This document shows positions 8,365 through 50,847 of a stretch of DNA of 59,750 bases, in pieces; positions within the stretch are counted from its first letter, which is position 1, and each line of letters begins with the position of its first letter. The notes under the pieces were generated by a model, which saw only the letters and a program-made list of their open reading frames with translations, was not told where the DNA came from and did no database searches. This DNA is from Minisyncoccota bacterium. GTDB taxonomy: Bacteria; Patescibacteriota; Minisyncoccia; Phycocordibacterales; Phycocordibacteraceae. The DNA lies in contig JALHQL010000007.1 of assembly GCA_022841985.1 (NCBI GenBank), positions 1-59,750 on the forward strand, written 5' to 3'. Made by a program: the position numbers and the translations under genes.

Positions 8365-8391
8365 ATGGCATAGACACGCTGTCTATGCCAT
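8365..8391 (-). terminator. hairpin downstream of gpmA
   Basis: atggcatagac-acgct-gtctatgccat gives an 11-bp stem, 6 nt after the gpmA stop. No T-run. Confidence 0.4.
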
Positions 8392-8396
8392 CGACA

Positions 8397-10270: not shown

Positions 10271-10359
10271 GCAATTTATATATTATTTCGCTTTTCAAGA
10301 TACCATGCGGTTTTATTTTTCTATACAAAATTGGATTGAACATCATATCTGGCAAAACA

Positions 10360-10384
10360 AAAACCGCCCTTGCGGGCGGTTTTT
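10360..10384 (-). terminator. rho-independent terminator after rpmG
   Basis: aaaaccgccc-ttgc-gggcggtttt, flanked by A/T runs. Confidence 0.6.
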
Positions 10385-10393
10385 GTAGAGGAA

Positions 10394-10549
10394 TTATCTC
10401 TTTACCTCCTTGAACGTGACGCGCTTGCGCAGTGTCGGATCGAACTTTTGGAGTTCAATTTTGCGCTCGGTGGTCTTTCTATTCTTACGAGTCCAAATAA
10501 CGTGATTGGATTTCGTGGATTTGAGCCTAAGCAGGCGATCTTGTGACAT
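10394..10549 (-). CDS. rpmG: 50S ribosomal protein L33
   Basis: Not in ORF track (51 aa). MSQDRLLRLKSTKSNHVIWTRKNRKTTERKIELQKFDPTLRKRVTFKEVKR has the L33 pattern (...KNxRxTxxKLELxKYxPxxRKHxxxKExK). Confidence 0.85.
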   Translation of the reverse strand: MSQDRLLRLKSTKSNHVIWTRKNRKTTERKIELQKFDPTLRKRVTFKEVKR

Positions 10550-10576
10550 GACTAAAATGTAACAGAAAGAGTGCCG

Positions 10577-13252: not shown

Positions 13253-13264
13253 ACGTATAGAATA

Positions 13265-14038: not shown

Positions 14039-14050
14039 ATTAGTATAATG

Positions 14051-15184
14051 CTACCCTGGAGTATTGTTGTCAATAAACGAGACTGCCTGTACAAGAGCCC
14101 TTCCAAAACGGACCAGCTCACGAGACCGAATGTGTGGACCCCATGAGATTCGAAGCGTTGCACGAGCGCGAGCGGGATCGCCCGTAAGAACTAGAACTGC
14201 TCGAGAACCCTCTTCGGAGTCCGTTTCGCACGCACTCCGGGAGGACACGGCGAAACCCGCCTCATCAAGAATTGCGACCAAGTAGTCGGTGTCCCGACCG
14301 GGCAGCGATATATTGAGAATATGCGGAACTTGAAGACGGCCTTCTTGTATATGTATATTCGGAATAATTTTAAGAGCTGACTTAAGAACTTCACGATCTT
14401 TCTCTGCCAAAGCGCGAAATGCCTCACGGGTGCGAGTAGCAGTTGTGAGTGCATGAGCAAAGCTCTGCGCGAGCTCGGGAGCTTCGCTTCCGGAGCGCAA
14501 TCCGCGCTCCTGTCCCCCTCCTGCATATAAAGGAATGAGTGGAATGGTGCGATGTGCTATGAGTGCACCAATACCGCGAACGTTACCAACTTTTGACGCA
14601 TCGAAAGTAAGCATGTCTGCATCGAAGTGTGCTCGAGAAATTTTCTCAGTAATCGGAGCTTGACTTGCGTCGACATGAAGCACGATGCGCGCGGCGACTC
14701 CGTCGCCGCGCGCCTTTCTCAATGTCTCACCCACCTCGCGCGTATTCCACACCACTCCCGTCTCGCCGCAGACTGCGTCCATCGAGACGAGGACTGTTCC
14801 ATCTCGCAACATCCTTGATAACACTTCCGTATCAACACGGTACTCTTTGATTGGTAACGCCTCAACAGCGACTCCCTCCGCTTGCAGTAATTTTACATTT
14901 TCTACGATCGACGCATGTGCACTCGGCAGATATAAGATATGTATGTCTTTTCTGCCGCCCACCTTAAGCGCTCTCGTATGCCCGAGAATAGCGAGCGCGT
15001 TACTCTCCGTCGCGCCGCTCGTGAAGACAACATCGTCCGACTGTACCTCCGTCAATCGCGCAATAACCGTTCGCGCGTCTTCAAGTGCCTTATTCGCTTG
15101 TCTTCCCTCCTCGTGCGGCGACGAAGCATTGCCGCTCACCCCTGCGGCATAATCAAGATAGGTTCTTTTCTTTCTCCAAAGCAT
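14051..15184 (-). CDS. class-V aminotransferase / cysteine desulfurase family protein
   Basis: YLDYAAG...SSPHEEG, FTSGATESN, HVDASQA, FDASKVGNVRGIGAL (PLP-Lys context), and SSRSAC near the C-terminus (active-site Cys loop). Confidence 0.85.
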   Translation of the reverse strand: MLWRKKRTYLDYAAGVSGNASSPHEEGRQANKALEDARTVIARLTEVQSDDVVFTSGATESNALAILGHTRALKVGGRKDIHILYLPSAHASIVENVKLLQAEGVAVEALPIKEYRVDTEVLSRMLRDGTVLVSMDAVCGETGVVWNTREVGETLRKARGDGVAARIVLHVDASQAPITEKISRAHFDADMLTFDASKVGNVRGIGALIAHRTIPLIPLYAGGGQERGLRSGSEAPELAQSFAHALTTATRTREAFRALAEKDREVLKSALKIIPNIHIQEGRLQVPHILNISLPGRDTDYLVAILDEAGFAVSSRSACETDSEEGSRAVLVLTGDPARARATLRISWGPHIRSRELVRFGRALVQAVSFIDNNTPG

Positions 15185-15241
15185 GATTCAATTTTAACAG
15201 AAATTGCAATTAAGTCATTTTTGTGATGAAATAGAGCCATC

Positions 15242-16711
15242 ATGGCGCGGACCCCGAGACCGCCCGTCATCGCGGTGATGGGCCACATAGACCACGGAAA
15301 ATCTTCACTTCTGGATTACATTCGGAAGGCGAACATTGTCGCGGGCGAGGCAGGCGGTATCACCCAGCACGTTGCCGCGTACATCGCGCTTCACAATGAC
15401 CGACCAATCACCTTTCTCGACACTCCCGGGCACGAGGCATTTAAGGCGCTACGCACACGCGGCGCGGCTGCCGCGGATATCGCTATCCTCGTTGTCGCAG
15501 CAGATGAAGGAGTGATGCCCCAGACACTTGACGCTCTTGCCGCAATCACCGAAGCAGGTATTCCGTACATTATTGCCATTACAAAGATTGATAAGAATAA
15601 TGCCGATGTCGGACATACGAAAAACTCACTTACCGAACACGGTATATATATCGAAGGAATGGGAGGAGATATTGCTTTCGCTCTCGTTTCATCTAAGACA
15701 GGAGAAGGTATCCCTGAACTGCTTGATCTCGTTCTCCTCTCAGCAGATCTCGCGGAAATCACCGCGAACTCGGAAACGAGCGCAAGCGGCTTCATACTTG
15801 AAGCGACTCAAGACGCGAAACGAGGAGTCTCGGCGACCCTCATCATCAAAGACGGCACGCTCACGCTCGACGGATGTGTTGTCGCAGGCGACGCATATGC
15901 CCCGATTCGATTCATCGAAAATTTCCTCGGCACACGCGTTCAACAGGCTGGACCCTCGGAGCCAGTACGGATTTCTGGATTCAACAAACTGCCTGCAGCC
16001 GGTTCACTTTTCAGTATTGTAAAGAATAAAAAAGAGGCGGAGGCTCTCGCAAAAGAAAACGCAAAATCAAATGTGACGACATCCGAGCGCAGTGCGGCAA
16101 TCGAAGGTATCGTTGAGCTCCCGCTTATTATAAAAACAGATGTCGCCGGCTCGATAGACGCCATCGCGCATGAGATTAAGAAAATAACTCATGATCAGGC
16201 TTCCATCCGTGTCGTCTCTTCAGGTGTCGGCAGCGTCTCGGAGACCGACGTCAAGACCGCGCGCGGAGCTGGCGGAACCATCATCGCGTTTAGTGTCCCG
16301 ACCGACACCGTCGCTAGTGACCTTGCGCAGCGCGACAACGTTACTATCCTCTCCTTTTCAATCATCTATGAGCTTTCGGCGAAGATTCGAGAACTGCTCG
16401 ACGCACGCGTACCTGTCGTCGCTTCTGAGAAAGAACTCGGGCGTGCGATGGTATTGAAAACTTTTTCTTCGGGTGCAAAGAAACAGGTTCTTGGTGCTCG
16501 CTACATATCAGGCGTCCTCACAGTCGGGAATCGCATGAAGATACTACGGAAAGATGTTGAAATCGCACGCGGCAGTATTTCGAACCTCCAGCAAGCTCGC
16601 GCTGACGTGAAAGAAATCAAAACTGAGGGCGATTTCGGCACCGAAATCGAGGCGCGCGAAAATGCAGCGTACGGCGATGAGATTGTCGCTTTCGTTGTCA
16701 CTGATATATGA
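15242..16711 (+). CDS. infB: translation initiation factor IF-2 (short form, starts at the G domain)
   Basis: PRPPVIAVMGHIDHGKSSLLDYIR, GGITQH, FLDTPGHEAF, ITKIDK. The C-terminal domains are present. Confidence 0.95.
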   Translation: MARTPRPPVIAVMGHIDHGKSSLLDYIRKANIVAGEAGGITQHVAAYIALHNDRPITFLDTPGHEAFKALRTRGAAAADIAILVVAADEGVMPQTLDALAAITEAGIPYIIAITKIDKNNADVGHTKNSLTEHGIYIEGMGGDIAFALVSSKTGEGIPELLDLVLLSADLAEITANSETSASGFILEATQDAKRGVSATLIIKDGTLTLDGCVVAGDAYAPIRFIENFLGTRVQQAGPSEPVRISGFNKLPAAGSLFSIVKNKKEAEALAKENAKSNVTTSERSAAIEGIVELPLIIKTDVAGSIDAIAHEIKKITHDQASIRVVSSGVGSVSETDVKTARGAGGTIIAFSVPTDTVASDLAQRDNVTILSFSIIYELSAKIRELLDARVPVVASEKELGRAMVLKTFSSGAKKQVLGARYISGVLTVGNRMKILRKDVEIARGSISNLQQARADVKEIKTEGDFGTEIEARENAAYGDEIVAFVVTDI

Positions 16712-17040
16712 ATCCCGACGCACGCACGCGCTCTCCCCGAAAGCAATCAAGTCGCGCGACTGAAATCGTCGCGCGCGAAGCCGCATTATTTATCGCGCGC
16801 GAAGCCGGCCGAGAATCACTCATCACCGTTACCCACGCACGAAGCATCGCGCATGGCGATCGCATCCTCGTATTTGTGAGCGTCTTCCCTGTCGAGAAAG
16901 CGCGTGCTGCCATGACTTTCCTTGAACGGCAGCGCGAAGCGTTTTCAGATCACTTAAAAAGTCATGCGCGCTTACGCCTCCCCCGCATTGATTTTATGCT
17001 TGATAACGGCGAACTATCAGGAGGCCCGAGCGGGAATTGA
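16708..17040 (+). CDS. rbfA: ribosome-binding factor A
   Basis: ATGA overlap with infB, the conserved infB-rbfA order, and a KH-like core ...LITVTHARSIAHGDRILVFVSVFP.... The last ~19 nt overlap tRNA-Cys on the other strand. Confidence 0.75.
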   Translation: MNPDARTRSPRKQSSRATEIVAREAALFIAREAGRESLITVTHARSIAHGDRILVFVSVFPVEKARAAMTFLERQREAFSDHLKSHARLRLPRIDFMLDNGELSGGPSGN

Positions 17041-17093
17041 ACCCGCGCATAACAGTTTTGCAGACTGTCGTGTTACCACTTCACCATCGGGCC
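17022..17093 (-). tRNA. tRNA-Cys (GCA)
   Basis: Hand fold: acceptor ggcccga/tcgggcc, anticodon arm acagt-ctGCAaa-actgt, T arm gcggg-ttcaatt-cccgc. No encoded CCA. Confidence 0.9.
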
Positions 17094-17143
17094 ACTCTAC
17101 GAGAATAGCAGAGATGGTAGTATCCTCAAAAGAGGTCATGTTT

Positions 17144-17236
17144 GCCGAGGTGGCGGAATTGGTAGACGCACAGGACTTAAAATCCTGAGAAAGCCTAAAA
17201 ACCTTCATGTGGGTTCGATTCCCACCCTCGGCACCA
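17144..17236 (+). tRNA. tRNA-Leu (TAA), class II, unusually long (93 nt with CCA)
   Basis: Acceptor gccgagg/cctcggc, discriminator A, encoded CCA. D arm gcg-gaattggtaga-cgc, anticodon arm cagga-ctTAAaa-tcctg, ~21-nt variable region, T arm gtggg-ttcgatt-cccac. Confidence 0.85.
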
Positions 17237-17273
17237 GAAATGAAAAGTCAAAAAACTAATTAAGAATTTTAAT

Positions 17274-18014
17274 ATGCATAATCAAAAAGGAGTTGCGAAC
17301 ATTGTTTTAATTGTAATTATTGTTGTCATTGTCGCTGTTGGTGGATATTTTGTTTCTTCCCCAAAAAAAGAAAGTACCCCAATAACTACTAATACTCCGA
17401 GTTCAAGTACTGTTGAAAATACTCAACCTACCAACGCCTCGGTGTCTGATACTCCTTCTCTTTCGGCAGATAAGAAAAGTGTCAGTGTCGATGGAAAAGT
17501 CTTGCTGTCCGTTAATAACGACACGATTTCCAATTGGTTCAAAACTGAAAGCCAGTTGTGCGATGGGTATAATCTAACCAGTACTCCGGATCGAAAGATG
17601 TTTTGTGAAAACAAAACATCTTTCGAAAACCAAACTAAATTTGCTTCAATTGTTGTTTCTCCCGATAAAATGAAAATTGGTTTTACCATAGAAAGCGATA
17701 CATTGTCTCCCGATAAAGTTGTTGGAATTTTTTCACGCTCTACCAATAAAGTTACCTTGCTTACTAACTATTACCTCGGAAACCAATTCATCAGCTTTTC
17801 TCCTAACGGCGTGAACTTTGTTTATCAAGGGGGATGCTTTGAAGGGATGTGCGGACTCTTTATCAATAACTCTGAAACCCTCGCCAGCAAAGCTAGCTTA
17901 AATAATCCCGAGTTTGCGGATAGTAGAAGTCAGAACTCGACTTTTGTCCGATGGATTTCGGACAACCAAGTCGAATACAAACTTGGTACTAAATTAAAAC
18001 GAGAATCGTTTTAA
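17274..18014 (+). CDS. membrane-anchored hypothetical protein
   Basis: 246-aa ORF with N-terminal TM VANIVLIVIIVVIVAVGGYFV and an S/T-rich linker. No family recognised. Confidence 0.65.
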   Translation: MHNQKGVANIVLIVIIVVIVAVGGYFVSSPKKESTPITTNTPSSSTVENTQPTNASVSDTPSLSADKKSVSVDGKVLLSVNNDTISNWFKTESQLCDGYNLTSTPDRKMFCENKTSFENQTKFASIVVSPDKMKIGFTIESDTLSPDKVVGIFSRSTNKVTLLTNYYLGNQFISFSPNGVNFVYQGGCFEGMCGLFINNSETLASKASLNNPEFADSRSQNSTFVRWISDNQVEYKLGTKLKRESF

Positions 18015-40809: not shown

Positions 40810-41721
40810 CTACTTTGTAACCGCAGCCTGTAGGATTACAGCTGAACCCTTGTGATTTTCAACAATCTTGGAAGCGAAGGTGCCTCCAAGTGTGTGCATC
40901 ATTGCATGATGCACGGATAGTATGTTCTCTTGAAGGGCCTGGTCGTCTTCGAGTCGTTCAACAATTAGACCAATCTCGACGCACTTTGCATACGACAGAT
41001 GGCGACCGTGCGATAAGTTCACAGAATGATCCCCGAGCTCTTTAATGATTTTGTCGATTTTTGCTTTTTTCTTATCAGCATTTACAATCCCAGCAAACAT
41101 TCTGACACCCAGCTTATCCCGAGCAATATCTTCAGCCCACTTTAGTGCTTGCTGACACTCGCCAACAAGAGTTGGTGTATATTTCGCAATGATTGGCTGC
41201 CAGACAAATACTTTTGTTTGATCAGCCTTAATCTCTTCGTGTGCCTTTTTAAATTCTTCCAAAATGCCATGGGCTGCAACCATTCCATAAGAAGTGTTGA
41301 ACTGAGGGTCGATAGGGCCTAGGCTCGAATGCTTGCCCATGAGAATTTTGTTCGATGAACAAGCAATCATCGTGCCTCCAGACATAGCAAGTTGAGGCAC
41401 AACAACGCGTATATCATCGAACATGGTCATTAAGTAGTCGATGATGGATTCCGTAGCAGCAATGTCGCCTCCTGGGGTATGTAGAATGAGATCGAGACCT
41501 TTTGTTCGATCTAAACCTTTAATGGTTGCCATGAAGGCATTCTTGTCCAAATCATTAATACCCAAGTTTGGCGCGCCTTGTTTTTGAAGCCACCCACTGT
41601 AATAGGCGATGACATTTCTTTTTGTGTATGTATGGAGGCGCTTTAAGTACTTGCGACGAATACCGTCAAAATCACCACGACTACTCTGTAACTCATTTAA
41701 GATACCTGTCCAGTCTGCCAT
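40810..41721 (-). CDS. SDH-family (serine dehydrogenase proteinase-type) ClpP/crotonase-fold serine protease
   Basis: LDLILHTPGGDIAATESIIDYL, VVPQLAMSGGTMIACSSNKILMGKHSSLGPIDPQ (nucleophile Ser in the MSGG context). Length ~300 aa. Confidence 0.8.
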   Translation of the reverse strand: MADWTGILNELQSSRGDFDGIRRKYLKRLHTYTKRNVIAYYSGWLQKQGAPNLGINDLDKNAFMATIKGLDRTKGLDLILHTPGGDIAATESIIDYLMTMFDDIRVVVPQLAMSGGTMIACSSNKILMGKHSSLGPIDPQFNTSYGMVAAHGILEEFKKAHEEIKADQTKVFVWQPIIAKYTPTLVGECQQALKWAEDIARDKLGVRMFAGIVNADKKKAKIDKIIKELGDHSVNLSHGRHLSYAKCVEIGLIVERLEDDQALQENILSVHHAMMHTLGGTFASKIVENHKGSAVILQAAVTK

Positions 41722-41915
41722 GTTGATACCTCAATAAGTTTATTATTCGGTTTCGACGATCCTCCAGTAACAATCCATCTATCAGAAACATTCCCTGTTT
41801 CTGGCGCAGGTAAAGGAGTGAAGACTTTCTCGGCAGGCCTAATCTCTTTAAAAATAGTTTCTATTTCCTCCTTAGAAAGCTCCTTTTTAGTTGTTTTTTG
41901 AGGGGTACTTTTCAT
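41697..41915 (-). CDS. small hypothetical protein between nuclease and protease genes
   Basis: 72 aa, hydrophilic. Starts 18 nt after the upstream stop, and its 3' end overlaps the protease start by 25 nt. No family recognised. Confidence 0.45.
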   Translation of the reverse strand: MKSTPQKTTKKELSKEEIETIFKEIRPAEKVFTPLPAPETGNVSDRWIVTGGSSKPNNKLIEVSTWQTGQVS

Positions 41916-41932
41916 AACTAAATTATATCACT

Positions 41933-42661
41933 TTAGACGATTTTCCTCCATCGCTTGAACGCTTTTAAGTCGGCAGAATTTAAGTCAAACCATTCGCCAT
42001 TCATTCGTTTTGCTTCAAAGCGTCTATGCCAATATGCCTCAATCCCGCTAGGATCATCAGTCTTAATTTCGTGGATTAAATCCAAATTTTCAGGCAATTG
42101 AATTTTAAGTTCATTTCCTCTCCGAACCGTATCATTCGTTTTTCCAATCTTGTAATACTTTCCATGCTTGAAAAGATAGACTGCACCAATCGATTTATTG
42201 ATATTTGAGTCATCAAAATTTTCCTTCACGCTTAACTCTTCAAGAATGGGTTCGCATAATTTAACAACATCTTCATAGCCAGTTTTGTCCTTACAGTATT
42301 CAACTATTTTTTCGACGAGCTCCAGTTTTGATCCAAGGTTTGTAAAAACATTTCTAGTCGGAAATTCAGCATCAACATTCTTTTCAAGCGCAAGTTCATC
42401 GTAAGTTGGAAATTTACCTAACTTACGCATAACAATAATTACTTTTTCAAGTATAAATTCTTCTGTGTAAGCACCTTGAAGTTCGTTTGGCATAAATCCA
42501 GCTTCTTTTTGTGCGTCTCCAATTCTTGCCCAATACTTTTTCCATTCGTAAGTTTTTATTCCCGTTTCTTTTGTAAATCTTTCTATACCCAAGGGCTTAC
42601 CACCATTTTCTTTAGCGGTTTTTTGAATTGCATTGATAATGTCTTGTTTGCTAATACTCAT
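41933..42661 (-). CDS. T5orf172/MUG113-type (GIY-YIG superfamily) domain protein with two N-terminal helical repeats
   Basis: C-terminal GAVYLFKHGKYYKIGKTNDTVRRGNELKIQLPENLDLIHEIKTDDPSGIEAYWHRRFEAKRMNGEWFDL is the T5orf172 signature. The N-terminus has repeated GKPLGIERF../GKFPTYDEL.. units. Confidence 0.8.
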   Translation of the reverse strand: MSISKQDIINAIQKTAKENGGKPLGIERFTKETGIKTYEWKKYWARIGDAQKEAGFMPNELQGAYTEEFILEKVIIVMRKLGKFPTYDELALEKNVDAEFPTRNVFTNLGSKLELVEKIVEYCKDKTGYEDVVKLCEPILEELSVKENFDDSNINKSIGAVYLFKHGKYYKIGKTNDTVRRGNELKIQLPENLDLIHEIKTDDPSGIEAYWHRRFEAKRMNGEWFDLNSADLKAFKRWRKIV

Positions 42662-42711
42662 ATCTTTATTTTAACAAAAAACCCTTATTTTACTTCGGTT
42701 CGAACTTGGAC

Positions 42712-42948
42712 ATCTGGCGGTGAGATATTAGACTTTGCTCGAACCCACTTCGCACGCGCGGAGCGCGTGGTGGCTTGAACCCGCCAAGTACGCTCCGATT
42801 GCGCTGGAACGCGCCTCGACCGCGCTCGCGGACTCGCGCGGGCAAACCAAAAAATTTCCTTGCATTTTTCTCGCGTCTCCTCCCCCCACCCCTCCGCCGC
42901 GAAGCGGAAAAAGAAATGGAAAGGAATTTTTTGGTTTTGCTTCGCCGT
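42712..42948 (-). repeat. repeat B, left copy (reverse complement of 46573..46808)
   Basis: Identical by eye except for one extra G at ~42716. GC-rich and contains the long hairpin gcaaaaccaaaaaattcctt...aaggaaattttttggtttgc. Confidence 0.9.
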
Positions 42949-43009
42949 TTCAGTCTCCGAAAAGAGCAATCTTATTTTAACATTTTTGTTTGCTCTTTTC
43001 TCCACCCTC

Positions 43010-43208
43010 ACGGCGACCGAGGCGCTCTGCTATCCGAGTTTTGTGGTAGCTTGAAACTCTGTGCCTTCGACCGCGTTAATGGGTGAATCCTTAAAGTGGA
43101 TTGTGCTAGGCACAAACAAATCTGTATGTGCTTGACCACCCTCCCATTCGCGCACAACAACCCATGCCGTTTTAGGAAAAATTATAAAACGGCATGGGTT
43201 GCTCCCTT
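43010..43208 (+). repeat. element X copy 1 (tRNA-Ser-like pseudo-element plus conserved hairpin module)
   Basis: Starts ACGGCGACCGAGGCGCTCT.... Contains gtgccttcgacc (compare tRNA-Ser gtgctttcgacc, plus-strand view). Ends with the hairpin cccatgccgtttta-ggaaaaatta-taaaacggcatggg (43161-98) followed by ttgctccct. Confidence 0.75.
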
Positions 43209-43263
43209 GCGTGAACTCGTAGACGCTATTGGAACCTGGATTTAACAAAGATATAATGAGTGC

Positions 43264-43830
43264 ATGGACGCAATCTCGTTCATATCTGAGAATAAACATA
43301 TTTTTGTTATTGGTCATGTACTTTTTGTGGTGCTTGGAATGGGTTCTGCTCTTGTGACCGACATTCTTTGCTTGCGCTTTGGATTCAACAAAAAACTATC
43401 CCATTCTGAAGTAAGCACTATTCGCTTTCTCTCACAAGTGGTCACCATCAGCCTTGTGGGTATTGTCGCGAGTGGTGCAACAGTATTTCTCTCTGACCCT
43501 GAACGTTATATGGACTCGGTAAAGTTCCTTACAAAAATGACAATTGTCTTTGTCCTTTGTATAAATGGCTACCTGCTCCACCGCTTTGTGTTTACGCATA
43601 TTGGAGACAAAAATATACTCACGAGCCCACGCACCCGTACGCTTCGAAAAGTTGGTTTTGCGCTAGGTGCCGTTTCTCTTGTGTCATGGGTTTCGGCACT
43701 GAGTCTTGGTGTGTTACTCCACATCTCCGTTTCTTACGATACAGCCATACTGTTTTATCTAGGTATTTTGTTAATTGCGATACTTGTGTCACAGGTAGTC
43801 GAATCGAGTCTGCTCGAACAGAGAAAATAA
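43264..43830 (+). CDS. polytopic membrane protein (5 TM), function unknown
   Basis: 188 aa with five hydrophobic helices. Any CopD-like role is only suggested by the metal-related neighbours. Confidence 0.6.
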   Translation: MDAISFISENKHIFVIGHVLFVVLGMGSALVTDILCLRFGFNKKLSHSEVSTIRFLSQVVTISLVGIVASGATVFLSDPERYMDSVKFLTKMTIVFVLCINGYLLHRFVFTHIGDKNILTSPRTRTLRKVGFALGAVSLVSWVSALSLGVLLHISVSYDTAILFYLGILLIAILVSQVVESSLLEQRK

Positions 43831-43896
43831 GATCTCCATGGTGCTCCTATTTGGAGTTTGTTATAATCAACATTATTATCCTTTTACTAAATTCGT

Positions 43897-44175
43897 ATGA
43901 ACTGCCCAACCTGTAGTATTCCCCTGTCCATTAGCGAGCGTCAGGGAATTGAAATCGATTACTGCCAAAAATGCCGTGGCGTCTGGCTTGATCGCGGAGA
44001 GCTCGACAAGCTTATCGAGCGTGCCGGTTCAACTGGTGTTCCACAACAAGATTCTGGGTACGATGACGATGATGATAAAAAGGGATACGGTCAATCCTCA
44101 AAACCTGGCGGTTTTGGTATGGGGAAAAAACGAGAGCGCGAGAACCCTATCGGAGAGCTTTTTGATTTCTTCTAG
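43897..44175 (+). CDS. zf-TFIIB-type zinc-ribbon protein
   Basis: MNCPTCSIPL...IEIDYCQKCRGVWLDRGELDKLIE is the classic TFIIB-type Zn-ribbon family. Acidic/Gly-rich tail. Confidence 0.75.
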   Translation: MNCPTCSIPLSISERQGIEIDYCQKCRGVWLDRGELDKLIERAGSTGVPQQDSGYDDDDDKKGYGQSSKPGGFGMGKKRERENPIGELFDFF

Positions 44176-44208
44176 GCATTCCCTGTTACTTCCGTTTGAA
44201 CCAGAAAT

Positions 44209-44240
44209 ACCGCCTCGTTGGGCGGTCTTTCTGTATTTCT
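44209..44240 (+). terminator. terminator after the zinc-ribbon gene
   Basis: accgcc-tcgttg-ggcggt followed by ctttctgtatttctt. Confidence 0.5.
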
Positions 44241-44275
44241 TAACTTTCCGCCCTCGGAAGGACTTGGGGCCGCAA

Positions 44276-44367
44276 CCTTGCCACCAGAAACAACTTGCCC
44301 CGTCCTGCGCACACAAGTCCCCGCCGTCTTTAGGAGATATTATAAAATGGCGCAGGTTGTCTCCCTT
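44276..44367 (+). repeat. element X copy 2 (3' half only, degenerate hairpin)
   Basis: ccttgccacc...ctgcgcacacaagtccccgccgtctttaggagatattataaaatggcgcaggttgtctccctt is colinear with the 3' halves of X1 and X3. Confidence 0.65.
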
Positions 44368-44390
44368 CCATATTAAGAAATAGTTACATT

Positions 44391-45254
44391 TTATGGATTG
44401 CAATACCCACAATATTTTGGATCAGCATTCTTACCATATTTCGTGACTTTCTTTTTGTCTGAATGATTACACACATTACATCGATATATGTCATAGAGGG
44501 GCAGGTCGGTTGGTATTTTACAAAGCGAGCATTCAAGTCCTTTTTCAAAATCAATTACCACAAAGCCGGGTGCCTGACATTGAGTACAGAGTGACTCAAT
44601 ATTTTTTATTAAATCCTCCGTTGCCTTTTTAATCGCTTTCATACGCATGGGGTTTTTATGTGCTCGCATGTCGGTTTCAATAAAAATGGACTTGGTAAAA
44701 GGCCATGAAAGCATCTCGGTCACTTTTTCGATGAGTGCATCTTTGGTGTGAATATCCTTATGAATTCCCAGGCGTCCTTTTTCGTTCCTTCTTACAATTA
44801 CACCGTGTTCTGGAAAACCAGTCTTTTGTGCAAAATCTAATGCTTCCCCAACAGTCGCAACACACTGCCCATCCATATTTGTTTCTGAAGTTCTGTGATG
44901 TCCTCGAATTTCATAGCCATTTTTTCTGTCAACAAATAACAACAACTCGAGATTGGACTGGATAAAGGGCATAGATGGATGTGCGCCAAAACTACCCTCA
45001 CTCGATACACCTAAATCGACATTTTCGCTCAACATAACAGCCTCCACTTTTTTTCGTGCCGCTTCTAATTGATTACCAGCTCTTTTAATGTCTCTTGTGA
45101 ATGTCCCAAATTGATCGGAATTAAAGTGTTTTGGGACAATAACTTCTACGCCGAGGTGCTTTTCAAGCAGAGGAGCAATTACAAGCTCTTTTCCGTGCAT
45201 TGTTGCAATGACCAATTTTCGTCCCTTGAATAAATTTTGATTCGGCATGCTCAT
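44391..45254 (-). CDS. conserved hypothetical protein with C-terminal four-CxxC zinc-ribbon pair
   Basis: 287 aa. C-terminus CTQC...CSLC...CNVC...CGYC. Its start lies 2 nt downstream of the XRE gene's stop codon. Family not confidently recognised. Confidence 0.7.
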   Translation of the reverse strand: MSMPNQNLFKGRKLVIATMHGKELVIAPLLEKHLGVEVIVPKHFNSDQFGTFTRDIKRAGNQLEAARKKVEAVMLSENVDLGVSSEGSFGAHPSMPFIQSNLELLLFVDRKNGYEIRGHHRTSETNMDGQCVATVGEALDFAQKTGFPEHGVIVRRNEKGRLGIHKDIHTKDALIEKVTEMLSWPFTKSIFIETDMRAHKNPMRMKAIKKATEDLIKNIESLCTQCQAPGFVVIDFEKGLECSLCKIPTDLPLYDIYRCNVCNHSDKKKVTKYGKNADPKYCGYCNP

Positions 45255-45256
45255 AG

Positions 45257-45469
45257 TTATTTCAAAAGTTCATCGCTCGCAACTCCTAATGCTTGAGCAA
45301 TTTTTTCAATGGTTGCAAGTGTCGGGTTTCCTTTTCCACCCTCAATATTACTCATTTGAGCACGATCAAAACCGAGAGCACGACAAATGTCACCTTGCGA
45401 CATTTTCTTACGCTCTCGTATGTGCTTTATGTTCTTTCCCAGTTTTATTGACGAAGTTTTCATATCCAC
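45257..45469 (-). CDS. XRE-family helix-turn-helix regulator
   Basis: LGKNIKHIRERKKMSQGDICRALGFDRAQMSNIEGGKGNPTLATIEKIAQALGV is the canonical HTH_3 pattern. Confidence 0.85.
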   Translation of the reverse strand: MDMKTSSIKLGKNIKHIRERKKMSQGDICRALGFDRAQMSNIEGGKGNPTLATIEKIAQALGVASDELLK

Positions 45470-45538
45470 AGTTCATAGTATAACAGTTTGTTGTGCTGTA
45501 TATCAATAATGTGATATATTACAATAGGTGTGATGTTG

Positions 45539-45757
45539 ACGGCGACCGAGGCGCTCTCGTATCCGCGTTTGGTGGTGGCTCTAAACTCTGTGCCTTCGAC
45601 GGCGGAAGTGCCAACTTATAAAGTGGAGCCTCGCCATACAAAATTCTTTAAGGAATGGCGAGGCACAAAATCTATATGTGTTTGCCCCACCCACCCCGTG
45701 CGCACACATCACCCCCGCCGTTTTGAGGAAAATTATAAAACGGCGGGGTTACTCCCT
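45539..45757 (+). repeat. element X copy 3 (full length)
   Basis: Starts ACGGCGACCGAGGCGCTCT.... Has an extra internal hairpin gcctcgccat...atggcgaggc. Ends with ccccgccgtttt-gaggaaaattat-aaaacggcgggg (45713-48) followed by ttactccct. Confidence 0.75.
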
Positions 45758-45765
45758 GCAAAAGA

Positions 45766-45795
45766 AAACACCCCTTGCGGGGCGTTTTCTTTTTG
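45766..45795 (-). terminator. terminator after the DUF305 gene (bidirectional shape)
   Basis: aaaaca-cccc-ttgc-gggg-cgttttctttttggg. On the minus strand there is a T-run after the hairpin, 9 nt past the stop. Confidence 0.55.
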
Positions 45796-45803
45796 GGCTT
45801 TTT

Positions 45804-46304
45804 CTATCGTCCGAACCAGTTCTCACGCCACTGCTTCATCATCTCTATTTCGCCCGTTTGAGCGGTGATGATGTCGTTGCCAAGTTTGATGAGTTCGGGA
45901 CGCTTCGTGCCTTGTAGGAGCATCTGCGCCATTTCTATTGCGCCCTGATGATGGACTATCATCTCGTCAAGAAACACCTCGTCAAGCGCATCTCCTGTTT
46001 TTCCCTCAAGCCCCATCATCATTCCGCTCATAGCTGTTCCCATGTCTGTCCCTTTCATCATTGAGCCGTCAGGCATCTGGTGTGAAGCGACAGGCGCTTT
46101 ACTCGTGTCATTCGTGCCAGCACCCGCAAAGTAGCCGATACCGAGTCCAAGAATGAGCGCGACTAAACCAATAACGAGACCGCGTTCGTCGTGCATCGGG
46201 GTAGATTTTTTTGTTTCGCTTTTCAGCACAAGTTGCATACCACATTTCGGGCATCGTCCCGACTCTGCTCGCTCTATTTCTGGATGCATTGGACAAGTGT
46301 ACAT
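45804..46304 (-). CDS. heavy-metal-binding-domain (HMBD) plus DUF305 protein, membrane anchored
   Basis: N-terminal YTCPMHPEIERAESGRCPKCGMQL (HMBD pattern seen on Cu/Ag efflux proteins), one TM, and DUF305 core FLDEMIVHHQGAIEMAQMLL...ITAQTGEIEMMKQW. Confidence 0.8.
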   Translation of the reverse strand: MYTCPMHPEIERAESGRCPKCGMQLVLKSETKKSTPMHDERGLVIGLVALILGLGIGYFAGAGTNDTSKAPVASHQMPDGSMMKGTDMGTAMSGMMMGLEGKTGDALDEVFLDEMIVHHQGAIEMAQMLLQGTKRPELIKLGNDIITAQTGEIEMMKQWRENWFGR

Positions 46305-46309
46305 AGTTT

Positions 46310-46513
46310 CTATTTTAGCAATTTATCTACAGACACGCCAAGCGCTTGCGCCAGGCGTTCCAACTGTTGAATGGTAATATTTTTCTTCCCATTCTCAATA
46401 GCACTCATATACCCCCTATCCATATCGAGCGCTCGGCAAATGTCGCCTTGCGACATTCCCTTGCGAGTCCTTATTTTCTTGATGTTTTCCCCTAGTTTCT
46501 GGCTTATCAACAT
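46310..46513 (-). CDS. XRE-family helix-turn-helix regulator (paralog of 45257..45469)
   Basis: LGENIKKIRTRKGMSQGDICRALDMDRGYMSAIENGKKNITIQQLERLAQALGV. It shares MSQGDICRAL and AQALGV with the other copy. Confidence 0.85.
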   Translation of the reverse strand: MLISQKLGENIKKIRTRKGMSQGDICRALDMDRGYMSAIENGKKNITIQQLERLAQALGVSVDKLLK

Positions 46514-46572
46514 AATTATAGCATACGCGCTCTTGCATTTCCAAACAATCTTGAACTATAATTCAAGTGGTG

Positions 46573-46808
46573 ACGGCGAAGCAAAACCAAAAAATTCCTT
46601 TCCATTTCTTTTTCCGCTTCGCGGCGGAGGGGTGGGGGGAGGAGACGCGAGAAAAATGCAAGGAAATTTTTTGGTTTGCCCGCGCGAGTCCGCGAGCGCG
46701 GTCGAGGCGCGTTCCAGCGCAATCGGAGCGTACTTGGCGGGTTCAAGCCACCACGCGCTCCGCGCGTGCGAAGTGGGTTCGAGCAAAGTCTAATATCTCA
46801 CCGCAGAT
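46573..46808 (+). repeat. repeat B, right copy
   Basis: Reverse complement of 42712..42948. Its last ~30 nt (gtgggttcgagcaaagtctaatatctcaccgc) resemble the T-arm and acceptor 3' end of tRNA-Ser (gtgggttcaaatcccaccctctccgc). Confidence 0.9.
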
Positions 46809-46931
46809 AGAAACTTCGCGTTCGGAGAGAGCCGCGCCGCCCTGCGGCGCGGCGGAAGGGGCGGGCAGAAAATGCCGCCGCGAAGCGGCGAATTGGCTCG
46901 GCGGGGGGAATCCGAAATGCGGGGATTTGGC
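46801..46931 (+). repeat. repeat A, left copy (131 bp)
   Basis: Exact reverse complement of 48348..48478. Contains the hairpins gccgcgccgc-cct-gcggcgcggc and cgccgc-gaa-gcggcg. Confidence 0.92.
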
Positions 46932-46955
46932 TCTTGTTTCAAATCCAAAAACTAT

Positions 46956-48494
46956 ATGAATATCAAACCAAAATATTTTCTATACGCTCGCAAATCGACC
47001 GAGGACGATGACAGGCAAGTTATGTCCATCGAGGCGCAACTTTTTGAACTGCGAGAGATTGCGCGTAAAGAAAATCTTGAAATTCTTGAGGAATTTCAAG
47101 AGTCGAAAAGCGCAAAGACACCAGGGCGCGAAATATTTGGAGAGATGATGGCCCGCATTGAACGAAGTGAGGGTGTCGGCATACTTGCGTGGCATCCCGA
47201 TAGGTTGGCTCGCAATAGTATTGACGGCGGACGCATCATCTACTCTGTCGATACGCGCAAGGTCGTGTCTTTGCGCTTCCCGACATTTTGGTTTGAACCG
47301 ACCCCGCAGGGGCTCTTTATGTTGCAAGTGGCGTTCGGGCAATCTAAATATTATTCGGACAATTTGAGCGACAACATCAAGCGCGGCGTCCGCCAAAAAT
47401 TGCGTCGGGGCGAGTGGCTCAACCGCGCACCCTTTGGCTATCAGAACAACCCTCGTATTCGCAATATCGAGCCACACCCGACAAATGCGCGTATTGTGAA
47501 ATTGGCGTACGAAGAATACGCCAAAGGGTCGCATACGCTGGTTTCGCTGTCGCAATTTTTGGCGGACTTGAATGTGGTGTCATCGAACGGAACTCCACTT
47601 GCAAAAGTTTCCATCAAACGACTTCTCACACATCGGGTATATCTCGGTTTCGTCAAACATGGCGACGAATGGTTTGATGGAAACTTTGAGCCGATTCTAA
47701 CTCCCGCATTGTTTGAAGCAGTGCAGAAGGTTGTGGCGGGCAAGGAGCGGCCGCGCTCGCGCAAGGTGAAGCACTATTTCCCGCTTGTCGGCCTCTTTCG
47801 CTGTGGTGAGTGCAACGGCATGATTTCCGCGCAATGGGCTACTAATCGTTGGGGTACAAAATATCGCTACTATCGGTGTTCCAAAAAACGCGGCCGTTGC
47901 TCGCAACCCTATGTGCGCGAGGCCGACCTTGCCGACAAGATACGGGCACGGCTTCAAACAATCTCGCTTTGCGATCGCTACACCGATTGGATGCTAAACA
48001 AAGTGAAAATATGGGAGCGCGAGGAAGTTGGAGCGTCGCAAAGCGAGGTTCAAAATCTTTCTGTCAAAATCAAAGCGGACGAGGAGCGCATGGAAAAGTT
48101 GGTATCCGCGTATCTCGACGGCGATGTACCAAAACACATTTATTTGACCAAAAAAGATACGCTCATGCGCTCTCTCGCCGCTTTGCGGGAAAAATTGAAA
48201 GATTTTGAACGCGGGAGAAAGAATCGGGTCGAACCCCTGCGGGAATGGATTTTGGATATGAAACAAGCCGATTTTTTGTACACGTCGGACGATTTGTACC
48301 AAATCAAGCAGTTTGTACAAAAAATCGGAACGAACCCTATGGTTCGTGCCAAATCCCCGCATTTCGGATTCCCCCCGCCGAGCCAATTCGCCGCTTCGCG
48401 GCGGCATTTTCTGCCCGCCCCTTCCGCCGCGCCGCAGGGCGGCGCGGCTCTCTCCGAACGCGAAGTTTCTATCTGCGGAGAGGGTGGGATTTGA
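46956..48494 (+). CDS. large serine recombinase (resolvase/invertase N-domain, recombinase domain, zinc ribbon, coiled coil)
   Basis: Start moved to MNIKPKYFLYARKSTEDDDRQVMSIEAQ (catalytic Ser context YARxST). Also AWHPDRLARN, RGEWLNRAPFGY, CGECNGMISA...YYRCSKKRGRC, then coiled coil. The last 48 codons lie in repeat A and the stop lies inside tRNA-Ser. Confidence 0.9.
   Translation: MNIKPKYFLYARKSTEDDDRQVMSIEAQLFELREIARKENLEILEEFQESKSAKTPGREIFGEMMARIERSEGVGILAWHPDRLARNSIDGGRIIYSVDTRKVVSLRFPTFWFEPTPQGLFMLQVAFGQSKYYSDNLSDNIKRGVRQKLRRGEWLNRAPFGYQNNPRIRNIEPHPTNARIVKLAYEEYAKGSHTLVSLSQFLADLNVVSSNGTPLAKVSIKRLLTHRVYLGFVKHGDEWFDGNFEPILTPALFEAVQKVVAGKERPRSRKVKHYFPLVGLFRCGECNGMISAQWATNRWGTKYRYYRCSKKRGRCSQPYVREADLADKIRARLQTISLCDRYTDWMLNKVKIWEREEVGASQSEVQNLSVKIKADEERMEKLVSAYLDGDVPKHIYLTKKDTLMRSLAALREKLKDFERGRKNRVEPLREWILDMKQADFLYTSDDLYQIKQFVQKIGTNPMVRAKSPHFGFPPPSQFAASRRHFLPAPSAAPQGGAALSEREVSICGEGGI
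48348..48478 (-). repeat. repeat A, right copy (131 bp), abutting tRNA-Ser
   Basis: Exact reverse complement of 46801..46931. Its last 3 nt overlap the tRNA discriminator and acceptor end. Confidence 0.92.
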
Positions 48495-48562
48495 ACCCAC
48501 GAAGAGCTTTCGCCCTTGCTGGTTTTCGAAACCAGTGCTTTCGACCACTCAGCCACCTCTCC
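48476..48562 (-). tRNA. tRNA-Ser (CGA)
   Basis: Acceptor ggagagg/cctctcc, discriminator G. D arm gct-gagtggtcgaa-agc, anticodon arm ctggt-ttCGAaa-accag, 18-nt variable arm with a 6-bp stem, T arm gtggg-ttcaaat-cccac. Confidence 0.9.
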
Positions 48563-48638
48563 TTCGAGCACTACTCAATATCGCTCGTATGAGATTCTAG
48601 CATTTGAGCACGAAAATGCTAGGATGCTAGGTACACAC

Positions 48639-48713
48639 GGCCCTATCGTCTAACGGTTAGGACAGCGCCCTTTCACGGCGTAAATCGGGGTTCGATTCCC
48701 CGTGGGGTCACCA
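48639..48713 (+). tRNA. tRNA-Glu (TTC)
   Basis: ggcccta...gcgcc-ctTTCac-ggcgt...cgggg-ttcgatt-ccccg-tggggtc-a-cca, with encoded CCA. Confidence 0.92.
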
Positions 48714-48720
48714 TCCATAG

Positions 48721-49210
48721 AATTCCGCCATTCCGAGAACTCCTGAAACGGAGATTTCAGCGTAATTGCTGGTTCTTTTCCGTTTCCAATGAAGTTCGAT
48801 ATCGTCTCGGCGATCAACGCCCGTTTTTCTGACGGCAGTCCGCTTTGGTAGCATACATACGCGCTATTTGCGAGTTCGAGGAGTTCCATAACGCGGTCCT
48901 CCTTTGAGCTACCTGAACCTACCTGCTCAAGTTGGTCAAGCAACTCCCGCCGTCTTAATAGCACCGCGGATTTTCGGCTTTCAAACAGCTCCTTCTCGAT
49001 CAATCCGTCGATCATCGCGTCGGCCAAGCGGGCTAGACGGGTTTCGCACCCCGCCAACTGAAGATTGAGTGACGCGGTACGCTCTGCCAGATCATCGGCT
49101 TTGGATACTCTCGTTTCTTCCACCATATCCCTCAAGTCCTTCATTTCCTGAGGATCCAGACGAATCGTTGCGTAGGTTCGATTGACCAGGTCCTCACAAA
49201 AGTGCGTGAG
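48721..49210 (-). pseudogene. C-terminal fragment of a second large serine recombinase (decayed integrated element)
   Basis: The translation ...LARLADAMIDGLIEKELFESRKSAVLLRRRELLDQL...ITLKSPFQEFSEW is colinear with the coiled-coil C-terminus of 46956..48494 (...MEKLVSAYLDGDVPKHIYLTKKDTLMRSLAALREKL...). No catalytic N-domain is present. Bounded by tRNA-Glu 3'-end repeats. Confidence 0.6.
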
Positions 49211-49351
49211 CAACTTTTGTGTACCCAAGCAAAGCCTGGGAGGCTTTGCGGCGGGGAATCGAAGACCTTGCGAGCATACTTTGCGATTTCCTGAAGCAAA
49301 GTATCCGCAAGGTGTACTGAAGCTGTAAGCTTCGATACGCGTACTCGCGGT

Positions 49352-49378
49352 CCCCGTGGGGTCACCAATCATCCATAG
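49352..49378 (+). repeat. direct repeat of the tRNA-Glu 3' end (att remnant)
   Basis: ccccgtggggtcacca(atca)tccatag versus 48698-48720 ccccgtggggtcaccatccatag. Confidence 0.85.
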
Positions 49379-49420
49379 ACACTCAAAGTTTTTCTGCTAC
49401 TGTGGACCCGGAGGTGAATC

Positions 49421-49801
49421 ATGCTCATTATAGAGGTTGTTTTGCCTGTAATCGCGGCAATGGCGTACAGCATTTGGCTCTTTAAAGAAATTAAGGAGGG
49501 CAAAAAACAGCTTGCGACCACTAACGCAATGTGTGACGCAGGCAAAGCATTCTGGGATTGGCGATATCGTAATCAGGGAGTCTACATCGGTCTCTCCCCA
49601 GAGGGGCAGAAACTCCTGCTTCGGTACATACGCGCGTACGACGAGTGGCTTATTTCCCACAAAAAAACTGACCGAAGTCACTACGACTTACTCGTCAATC
49701 TCCTCAACGACTTCCCGCCCAACGAACCGAATGATATGCCGCCCGGCATTCCCAAGAAGCCCCCTGATGCCATCAAGGGGCTTCTTTCTTTATTCCCTTG
49801 A
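49421..49801 (+). CDS. membrane-anchored hypothetical protein
   Basis: GGAGGTG RBS 5 nt upstream. N-terminal TM IIEVVLPVIAAMAYSIWLF. 126 aa. Confidence 0.6.
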   Translation: MLIIEVVLPVIAAMAYSIWLFKEIKEGKKQLATTNAMCDAGKAFWDWRYRNQGVYIGLSPEGQKLLLRYIRAYDEWLISHKKTDRSHYDLLVNLLNDFPPNEPNDMPPGIPKKPPDAIKGLLSLFP

Positions 49802-49834
49802 TTTCCCCATCGTCATGGATCACAATACTTAGAC

Positions 49835-49867
49835 AAAAGAGACCAGTGGTGGTCTCTTTTGTATTTT
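49835..49867 (+). terminator. rho-independent terminator
   Basis: aaaagagacca-gtgg-tggtctctttt followed by gtatttt. Confidence 0.65.
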
Positions 49868-49928
49868 CCAATATCGCTACCTTATCATATTTCCGAGGGA
49901 TGATGAGGCCGTGGTATAGTGCTCGCAC

Positions 49929-50001
49929 GCGCGCATAGCTCAATTGGTAGAGCGTCACATTGACGTTGTGAATGTTCCAGGTTCGAGTCCTGGTGCGCGC
50001 A
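49929..50001 (+). tRNA. tRNA-Val (GAC)
   Basis: Acceptor gcgcgca/tgcgcgc, D arm gctc-aattggta-gagc, anticodon arm tcaca-ttGACgt-tgtga, T arm ccagg-ttcgagt-cctgg. Confidence 0.92.
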
Positions 50002-50040
50002 CCCTCCCAAAACCTTGATTTCGTGCTATAGTGTTCTCTA

Positions 50041-50847
50041 ATGCGACCAAAGCGCCACACTCCGCACTCAGTCCGGCGAATGCCGGAACGCGGTGCATCA
50101 GTTCCCTCGGGGAAAATTTACGTATACGGTAAGCACGCGCTTATGGAGGCGCTCCAGAATACCCCGCACATCATCCGCAAAGTATTTCTCGCGCCAAATC
50201 TGAATGATACCGAGCTGCATACGCTCCTCCTAACCCGCAAAATCCCGACCGCGGCCCTCGCACCAGGATCGGGTAAAGAGCTCGTCGGAAAAGAGGCATC
50301 GCACCAAGGCGTCATATTTACCATAGACCCTGCTACCCTTCTTATCTCACTCGACGCATTTTTAGAGAGAATTGATATGAAAAAAAATCCCTCTATCGCC
50401 ATTCTTGGCGAAGTGCAGGACCCCCACAATGTAGGTGCCATCATCCGCTCAGCCGCGGCATTTGGCCTCTCAGGAGTTCTCATCCCAGAGCACAATCAGG
50501 CGGGAGTAACCGGTGCAGTCGTAAAGAGTTCTGCCGGCATGACCTTTCGCATTCCGCTCGTATCGATAGGCAATGTAAACAACACAATTAAAGTACTCAA
50601 AGAAAAAGGATTTTGGATCTATGGACTCGCGATGGACGGTACGATGAAACTCGGCACAGACACTTTTGACGCGCCCGCTGCATTTGTCGTTGGAAATGAA
50701 GGAGGTGGCATACGAGAAAAAACTCTCGAAGCGTGCGATGTCACTCTCTCGATTCCTATACATGCGCGCACTGAATCTCTGAACGCAGCAGTTTCCGCTG
50801 CAGTCGTCTTCTATGAATGGTCAAAGAAACACCCGGAAGCACTATGA
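50041..50847 (+). CDS. TrmH/SpoU-family RNA 2'-O-methyltransferase (RlmB-like)
   Basis: VYGKHALMEAL, HQGVIF, LGEVQDPHNVGAIIRSAAAFG, VVGNEGGGI, SLNAAVSAAVVFYE. The start may be the internal ATG at 50080. Confidence 0.85.
   Translation: MRPKRHTPHSVRRMPERGASVPSGKIYVYGKHALMEALQNTPHIIRKVFLAPNLNDTELHTLLLTRKIPTAALAPGSGKELVGKEASHQGVIFTIDPATLLISLDAFLERIDMKKNPSIAILGEVQDPHNVGAIIRSAAAFGLSGVLIPEHNQAGVTGAVVKSSAGMTFRIPLVSIGNVNNTIKVLKEKGFWIYGLAMDGTMKLGTDTFDAPAAFVVGNEGGGIREKTLEACDVTLSIPIHARTESLNAAVSAAVVFYEWSKKHPEAL

Follow-up and report, generated by a model that had tools for sequence, protein, structure and literature searches.

We analysed a stretch of 59,750 nucleotides (nt) from a Minisyncoccota bacterium (Patescibacteriota; assembly GCA_022841985.1, contig JALHQL010000007.1, positions 1 to 59,750), hereafter the window, in which positions 42717-48474 are one integrated copy of a small integrative element at a tRNA-Ser gene. 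On the + strand the order is flank a', B', cargo (3.6 kb), B, A, recombinase gene, A', tRNA', where A and B are repeats and A' and B' are their inverted partners. Junctions are written with a point, so that B.A denotes B running straight into A. The features of the element and its borders, with the evidence for each, are:

42690-42716, minus strand: flank a (sequence; junction alignment; unrelated a flanks at about 25 other loci)
42717-42948, minus strand: B' arm, the element side of attR (inverted repeat; virtual open reading frame (ORF); tail conservation)
42949-46572, no strand: cargo arc, 3.6 kb (ORFs; Pfam; repeats)
46573-46804, plus strand: internal B arm, ending in the core CCGC at 46801-46804 (inverted repeats; conservation over 83 non-redundant loci; codon-position entropy)
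46805-46931, plus strand: internal A arm (inverted repeat; recombinase frame continuing through A' at >70 loci; codon periodicity)
46933-46955, plus strand: u23 motif, just 5' of the recombinase ATG (inverted repeat of 23 nt, 87%; conservation; loci L164 and L168)
46956-48494, plus strand: large serine recombinase (LSR) gene in its integrated state, 512 aa (Pfam; structure match; NCBIfam)
48348-48474, plus strand: A' arm, the element side of attL, coding (inverted repeat; frame; codon periodicity)
48475-48562, minus strand: intact tRNA-Ser(cga) gene (ARAGORN; Rfam tRNA, 63.4 bits)

A repeat search over 41000-50500 returned both inverted pairs: B, 232 nt and 100% complementary (42717-42948 and 46573-46804), and A, 135 nt and 99% (46797-46931 and 48348-48482). 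The sole mismatch in the A pair lies on the tRNA/B side of the core, A proper being identical in both copies, and chance cannot plausibly account for perfect repeats of 131 and 232 nt. Common to the three junctions is the core CCGC (46801-46804, and as GCGG at 48475-48478 and 42717-42720), which at 48475-48478 spans the final acceptor-stem bases and the discriminator of the tRNA-Ser. Each repeat pair brackets one arc only, direct duplication is limited to the 4-nt core, and the outer ends, B' and A', are not repeats of each other as those of an insertion sequence (IS) or transposon would be. When 42600-48600 was searched with Rfam (gathering thresholds and E<=1), the tRNA alone reached threshold; we rejected A and B as known RNAs, since no model matched them and sX4, below threshold, merely overlaps the tRNA.

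The first-pass annotation of this DNA had described a tRNA-Ser gene running into a copy of A and, elsewhere, B running into A in the opposite orientation. A three-way junction alignment shows both tRNA.A and B.A, and ARAGORN and Rfam agree in calling tRNA-Ser(cga). At the far end, the annotation had placed a copy of B carrying a 1-nt indel; the copy is there, at 42717-42948, while the extra AGAT and the indel (42712-42716) belong to flank a. The likeness it saw of 42690-42711 to the first 20 nt of A does not exceed what chance would give, and the a flanks of about 25 other loci are unrelated to A save for an A-rich start, often being tRNA-trailer-like with terminators. Flank a is probably the native 3' trailer of the tRNA-Ser gene, displaced by the element; in tRNA orientation it begins C-AGATG, and the empty site would then encode CCA.

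The assignment of B.A as attP, tRNA.a as attB, tRNA.A as attL and B.a as attR, proposed from the window alone, is supported by core sharing and covariation among related elements. With the junctions of more than 60 loci read in tRNA orientation, tRNA.A and B.A have a common short core that varies with the tRNA: CCGC at Ser, GCAC at Arg, Leu and Gly, TCAC at Glu and Pro, GGAC at Lys and CCAC at Ala. B.a retains that core, followed by an unrelated flank (about 25 loci), and the B and A arms make an imperfect palindrome around the core, as serine-integrase attP sites do. The end of B had also been compared with the T-arm and 3' end of the tRNA. The resemblance is real, but as a copied tRNA end it does not hold, being largely a coding or binding motif instead: GGTTCG(A/C)GCAAAG occurs family-wide in B, 8 nt farther from the core than the tRNA T-loop, and on the opposite strand encodes F-A-R-T of the recombinase tail. 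It may be a recombinase half-site too. A degenerate tRNA in B was rejected on two grounds, the displacement of the GGTTCG motif by 8 nt and its coding role on the opposite strand.

By domain order and the comparative logic of its sites, the enzyme is a predicted large serine recombinase. Three Pfam domains lie above cut-off, PF00239 Resolvase (residues 8-154), PF07508 Recombinase (175-261) and PF13408 Zn_ribbon_recom (276-329); a Y-A-R-K-S motif occupies residues 10-14, and the closest solved structure is SPbeta SprA/YokA (E = 5e-12, LSR residues 9-424). In NCBIfam the protein is CcrB/XisF-like, with every LSR model scoring far below cut-off, and exact look-ups with the 512-aa and 540-aa starts found no identical sequence on record. 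We identified no recombination directionality factor, and no candidate for one beyond a conserved 67-aa helix-turn-helix (HTH) protein.

The attachment site of the element falls within its recombinase gene. A' supplies the codons for residues 465-508, and the ORF ends inside the tRNA gene, with the last few residues (E-G-G-I) and the stop. At more than 70 loci the ORF passes in frame, with no stop, through the whole of A', whose peptide pattern is conserved (D-K-S-a-x-F..P-S-Q-F-V-A-x-R-R..L-S-x-x-E-V-S-x-C); integrated ORFs then stop at variable positions inside the tRNA, 2-229 residues further on. Joining A' to B' yields a conserved end, (G/A/E/D)-(E/D)-I-L-T-F-A-R-T-(H/Y/F)-F-E-x-x-stop, with a constant length of 57-62 residues past residue 464. 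This A'.B' join would be the configuration of an excised circle, and the minus strand of the internal B.A also displays it. In the window, 42717-42778 (+) encodes the native tail G-E-I-L-D-F-A-R-T-H-F-A-R-A-E-R-V-V-A-stop, with which the full-length protein would have 526 aa and end ..EVSICGEILDFARTHFARAERVVA; the integrated gene specifies 512 aa, ending ..EVSICGEGGI.

Over 96 distinct tail sequences the entropy is 1.02 at third codon positions as against 0.65 and 0.49 at first and second positions, and the codon changes are synonymous (GCG/GCT, CAC/CAT, ACC/ACT). This codon-like variation argues that the A'.B' tail is coding; for A' the codon periodicity is 0.97/0.80/1.20. There is strong support from these comparisons for the view that the last ~60 LSR codons would come from A' and the first ~55 nt of B'. 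Because the gene spans the crossover site, integration swaps the C-terminal 15-20 residues for arbitrary tRNA-encoded ones. An AlphaFold2 model of the C-terminal half (8 sequences deep, mean predicted local distance difference test score (pLDDT) of 65), which we used for the terminal helix alone, renders the last 24 residues of a native-tail database fragment as one helix (pLDDT ~70) with the crossover mid-helix. A protein-database search with the virtual C-terminus returned fragments only; the native-tail ones can stem from tandem arrays of the element (see below), and hence are no proof of circles.

The internal B.A lies between the divergent HTH and LSR genes. Its A arm is an inverted, non-translated copy of the final 131 nt (core included) of the recombinase coding region before the crossover, and the minus strand of 46743-46804 is a spare copy of the recombinase tail codons. 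Beyond A, the u23 motif (46933-46955) is the reverse complement of the W-I-L-D-M-K-Q codons at 48245-48267 (23 nt, 87%), and is conserved across loci as CTTGTTTC..ATC.AAAA. The u23 match identifies the internal B.A as a partial inverted duplicate of the LSR 3' end, attP and downstream B sequence, in which ~81 nt are deleted and the frame is broken outside A. A deletion derivative among the related loci (L164, 5765-7020) has itself lost exactly the 81 nt (27 codons) that separate the W-I-L-D-x-K-Q codons from A', like the internal copy.

The HTH gene adjoining internal B encodes a 67-aa XRE-type protein and diverges from the recombinase gene across B.A. A homologue adjoins internal B in 53 loci, and the HTH gene, B.A and the LSR gene make up a conserved module, the remaining cargo being unrelated between loci. 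A sigma-70-like promoter is predicted for the HTH gene at 46544-46515, just outside B, and the protein is a candidate regulator. B itself holds a conserved imperfect palindrome (46584-46607 and 46654-46677, also at 42844-42867 and 42914-42937) of the form AAACCAAAAA.TTCC...GGAA.TTTTTGGTTT around a 46-nt GC-rich loop, of moderate conservation over the 83 non-redundant loci. It may be an operator, a terminator or a single-strand origin.

We searched for relatives. An exact pattern across the B.A junction matched one other genome, a Flye/Nanopore metagenome-assembled genome (MAG), ~90% identical, which has the order HTH, B, A, LSR, A' beside a different tRNA-Ser and in which the two A copies are identical to each other and distinct from the A of the window. 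Protein-guided scans found at least 583 relatives in species-representative genomes and at least 588 in metagenomes, together more than 1,100; 80 loci were retained from each of the two scans, and the scripted census covered 161 loci. L numbers designate single loci. The LSR identity of the relatives is 61-95%. Nearly all records are labelled Patescibacteria/CPR (candidate phyla radiation), the few odd labels looking like mis-binning, and viral contigs yielded no relatives. A convergent tRNA begins directly after A', ~128 nt past LSR residue 464, in 114 of the 161 loci, and the targets comprise 23 anticodon classes (five each for Ser and Arg, two each for Glu, Ala and Leu, and one each for Gly, Val, Lys, Pro, Ile, Tyr and Met). 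An A-type repeat pair is detectable in 126/161 loci, and a B-type pair (122-330 nt) surrounds a 1-7 kb cargo in ~40 loci, where upstream DNA suffices. Elements measure 3.5-9 kb, and A and B each occur exactly twice per element. The internal inverted attP retained in the integrated element, which the first-pass annotation had presented as a layout without known precedent, is the rule for the whole family. In a few loci (L032 = OY970382.1, 11401-11600; L113, L119, L134, L141) A' abuts sequence that ARAGORN does not call a tRNA; these neighbours still end in the expected core and may be degenerate or unusual targets.

Elements also occur as tandem two-unit arrays (L003 at 7567-17889, L028, L040, L101-L103, L162; L003, L162 and ~10 others were counted), where the distal unit ends in an A' that directly adjoins the B' of the tRNA-proximal unit and keeps a full-length, native-tailed LSR ORF. 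An occupied site is thus still a target. In L162 (1-1016) an rve-family (DDE) transposase gene adjoins the HTH of one unit, an IS inserted into the cargo.

Within elements the arms are far more alike than between them. The median identity of A between elements is 60% (5th-95th percentile 44-93%); the two A copies of one element are 100% identical in 44 of 96 loci, 99-99.9% in 19, 97-99% in 14 and lower in the other 19, and the B arms behave as the A arms do. In imperfect pairs the differences are patchy or mosaic, not evenly spread, which points to gene conversion and recombination between elements and not to clock-like decay; uniform decay of the arms after insertion, as in a long terminal repeat (LTR) clock, was rejected for this reason. 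That the two repeat pairs recombine, with the arms evolving in concert, is strongly supported. In L093 (4600-6630) the core of the internal B.A is CCGC, of Ser type, and its A arm is of L013 type; the outer A', beside a tRNA-Ile(tat), has the core GGAC and unrelated A sequence. This is presumably a recombinant of two elements. In L094 (6250-6550), a deletion derivative, the first ~45 nt of B' are fused to mid-A, and the cargo and the internal site are gone.

The LSR arc has its usual orientation in ~98% of copies. It is flipped, with tRNA.A and LSR co-directional, in six contigs (L107, L159, L165-L168), among them a k141 contig (L167), in which k is longer than the arm. The cargo arc is flipped, with the HTH gene beside the outer B', in 10/63 loci with the HTH marker, and two loci show the order LSR, A'.B', HTH.

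Comparison strongly supports insertion of the element by the LSR at the tRNA 3' end, by 4-nt-core exchange between a B.A-type site and the tRNA-trailer junction, which leaves tRNA.A (attL) and B.a (attR). We propose, with a probability of about 0.45, that integration self-truncates the integrase and that the gene regains the spare end when the LSR arc inverts. Integration via the site at the 3' end of the gene would alter the C-terminal helix, disabling or redirecting the integrase, and the element would be locked in. Such trapping would explain the single orientation of ~98% of copies, as integrants keeping a full-length enzyme would stay active. On rare occasions the LSR arc would invert across the 131-nt arms, through host homologous recombination or through the LSR acting on attL and the internal attP, which would fuse the gene to the spare 3' end (A' to B') and also put it downstream of the tRNA. 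The restored full-length enzyme could then let the element excise as a circle with two inverted attP copies and move again.

Several points weigh against this proposal. The tRNA-tailed and full-length LSR differ by just 15-20 residues, and the LSR body (1-464) is intact even where the arms differ by 3-23%; the integrated-form enzyme may be under selection and functional. Few contigs are flipped, and in none does the sequence continue past the LSR 3' end into a restored ORF. We stress that the evidence for both orientations consists of assemblies and that most flipped contigs are short-read, where a 131-nt repeat can be mis-resolved. A B repeat extending 160-330 nt is not required by the model, and, as internal and terminal B are identical, selection for a spare tail is inseparable from selection for the attR copy. 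Recombination of attL with attP is, to our knowledge, not a reaction of canonical large serine integrases. An exact-pattern scan of genome_contigs for the empty site (tRNA-Ser joined to a) gave no match and the searches recovered no circular junction, so that excision and the two-attP circle stand as predictions. The trailer-like a flanks, and the presence of this element type at four tRNA-Ser isoacceptors, are indirect support for empty versions of an occupied locus.

An alternative holds that, in a two-attP circle, the site at the LSR 3' end alone integrates, the internal copy being an operator-promoter between HTH and LSR that one or both of the proteins bind for autoregulation, and inversion incidental; resolvase acting at res, between tnpA and tnpR in Tn3, is a parallel. 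We regard this as unlikely, even though the HTH gene, B.A and LSR form the most conserved module (53 loci), B contains conserved non-coding blocks and the palindrome, a promoter-like site for HTH lies just outside B, and the orientation of the LSR arc is near-constant. An operator of ~50 bp would do where perfect copies of 131 + 236 nt are kept, the internal A arm duplicates coding sequence, no + strand LSR promoter was found in 46300-47000, and the idea fails to explain what sets apart two identical sites on a circle, or the concerted evolution. We likewise doubt that the duplicate is a frozen accident, that is, an ancestral head-to-head duplication without function, homogenised by gene conversion, with inversions as a by-product. 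The u23 remnant, the 81-nt deletion and the frame shift look like a duplicate decaying outside its arms, arm differences are patchy and mosaic, and the internal site has been lost or rearranged with the LSR intact in L016, L050, L093 and L094. Against it, the duplicate is kept with the same codon boundary across LSRs down to 61% identity and is retained in hundreds of tiny elements in streamlined genomes, where deletion bias should remove a useless 370-nt palindrome arm; moreover, 80% of arms are >=97% identical, compared with the 60% median between elements.

In a further possibility, after single-stranded uptake of a chromosomal fragment by natural transformation, B' with B and A' with A would anneal, the internal B.A would bring the two element ends into line, and flap trimming and ligation would circularise the element without recombinase; as a corollary, mismatch repair of the two stems would hold the arms identical. 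The arms are indeed far longer than recombinase sites and abut exactly at the core, they evolve in concert, and the element has spread over many CPR lineages without conjugation, replication or phage genes and without relatives in viral contigs. We nevertheless consider such a splint very improbable: the reasoning is purely geometric, the orientation bias is left unexplained, and a naive recipient must still express the LSR after second-strand synthesis. Distinctly unlikely, too, is the disjunction of an element moved only by transformation through the splint or, in a milder form, of a swap of the C-terminal helix acting as a directionality switch that arc inversion resets; were the milder form true, the swap of the crossover helix would stand in for the separate directionality factor of a serine integrase. 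Finally, repeats do confuse assemblers, and short-read contigs of the family commonly break k-1 nt into B or A, so that an assembly chimera had to be considered, as had the case of A as the native tRNA flank and B as a dispersed repeat, the outcomes that the first-pass annotation had named as refuting its reading. Both are close to untenable. The full layout is present in Flye/Nanopore MAGs, in closed chromosomes and in assemblies from dozens of studies (Nanopore or closed: L001, L032, L035, L046/L051 = CP060229.1), and A and B accompany the recombinase at all 23 tRNA classes, each twice per element, which argues that A is not a tRNA flank and B not a dispersed repeat. Self-truncation on integration, with reset by arc inversion, is the reading we prefer.

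The cargo of the window element contains no conjugation, replication or phage genes. Its genes, found as ORFs and by Pfam, are:

43264-43830, plus strand: membrane protein
43897-44175, plus strand: Zn-ribbon protein
44391-45254, minus strand: DUF6671 protein
45257-45469, minus strand: HTH protein
45804-46304, minus strand: protein with DUF305 and heavy-metal-binding domains
46310-46513, minus strand: the conserved XRE-type HTH protein (Pfam HTH_3, E = 3e-14)

The HTH genes at 45257-45469 and 46310-46513 are paralogous (113 nt at 71%). Three copies of a GC-rich element of ~200 nt occur in the cargo (43010-43193, 44306-44352, 45539-45745), each terminating in a hairpin ACCC.GCCGTTTT..AAAACGGC.GGGT, and a similar element adjoins B' in L030. 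These repeats look like cassette-end hairpins, and the cargo seems to have accreted from two or three cassettes, each with an HTH and an end element of its own.

Just beyond the element on the a side lies a gene for a T5orf172/MUG113-domain protein (41933-42661, minus strand), followed outward by one for an SDH-type ClpP-like serine protease (40810-41721, minus strand); GC content over 40810-42661 is lower, at 33-36%, and the region may be another mobile or defence-related insertion. On the other side, a tRNA-Glu(ttc) gene (48639-48713, +) precedes a 650-nt segment at whose borders the tRNA 3' end and trailer are directly repeated (48697-48721 and 49351-49379, TCCCCGTGGGGTCACCA(ATC)ATCCATAGA). 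A minus-strand ORF in this segment (48650-49372) has a coiled-coil-like region. We rejected it as the relic of a second recombinase, its colinear match to the LSR C-terminus being weak (E = 0.2), and its 'tRNA-Glu tail' is trivial tRNA antisense. The region 48639-49380 may be the remnant of another tRNA-integrated element.

Comparison with characterized systems shows partial likeness to several. The enzyme has the domain order (Resolvase, Recombinase, Zn-ribbon with coiled coil) of the large serine integrases (SPbeta SprA/YokA, phiC31, Bxb1, A118, CcrAB of SCCmec, XisF), and its sites are short with a small common core, as theirs are. Unlike in these systems, the LSR gene here crosses its own attP, an intact inverted attP stays inside the integrated element, and a single clade (61-95% identity) has targets in no fewer than 23 tRNA anticodon classes, the core covarying. 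The archaeal 'suicidal' integrases of the SSV type likewise have the att site within the int gene, so that integration alters the product; according to a review, complete suicidal integrases catalyse both directions, integration splits the gene, and excision after integration would need an intact gene (PMC8371274). SSV-type integrases are tyrosine recombinases reported from archaea only, their gene being cut into two large parts, whereas here a serine recombinase of bacteria (Patescibacteria) loses a tail of 15-20 residues and a spare inverted 3' end is present. The element works like a suicidal integrase in this one respect and is not a member of that group. In the mycobacteriophages BPs, Brujita and Charlie, which show integration-dependent immunity, attP also lies within an ORF, and free and integrated forms encode different C-termini, the difference being the switch (PMC3694055). 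In these phages, however, the gene that holds attP encodes the repressor, a tyrosine recombinase carries out the integration, a degradation tag is lost in the process and no internal duplicate site exists.

Serine invertases (Hin/hix, Gin/gix, Cin, Pin) also combine a recombinase gene with a segment bounded by inverted sites, and both orientations of that segment can occur; the likeness to them is one of geometry only. Hin/Gin-type invertases are small serine recombinases that have a C-terminal HTH and act at 26-bp sites together with a Fis-dependent enhancer, whereas the LSR here has 512-526 aa and the arms measure 131-330 nt, which sets the element apart from invertases. The predicted circle, in which two long identical inverted repeats, each with a recombinase site, part two unique arcs, resembles the yeast 2-micron plasmid and plastid inverted repeats in geometry only; its repeats would evolve in concert and give rise to flip isomers. 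In the 2-micron plasmid, Flp, a tyrosine recombinase, acts at FRT inside 599-bp inverted repeats and the flip isomers are equimolar; in the present family one orientation dominates, and the circle is a prediction.

Full-text literature searches found no description of this element family or its layout, and it is apparently undescribed. What is new is a serine integrase gene that crosses its own attachment site, an arrangement reported earlier for archaeal tyrosine integrases only, together with a conserved attP, internal and inverted, through which either half of the element could invert. For work on retargetable large serine integrases, the occurrence of related enzymes over 23 tRNA classes with a covarying 4-nt core is of practical interest. 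A large share of bacterial diversity belongs to the CPR, and we know of almost nothing on gene movement between them; the element family carries variable cargo, including metal-binding, membrane and regulatory genes, into the tRNA genes of many CPR lineages.

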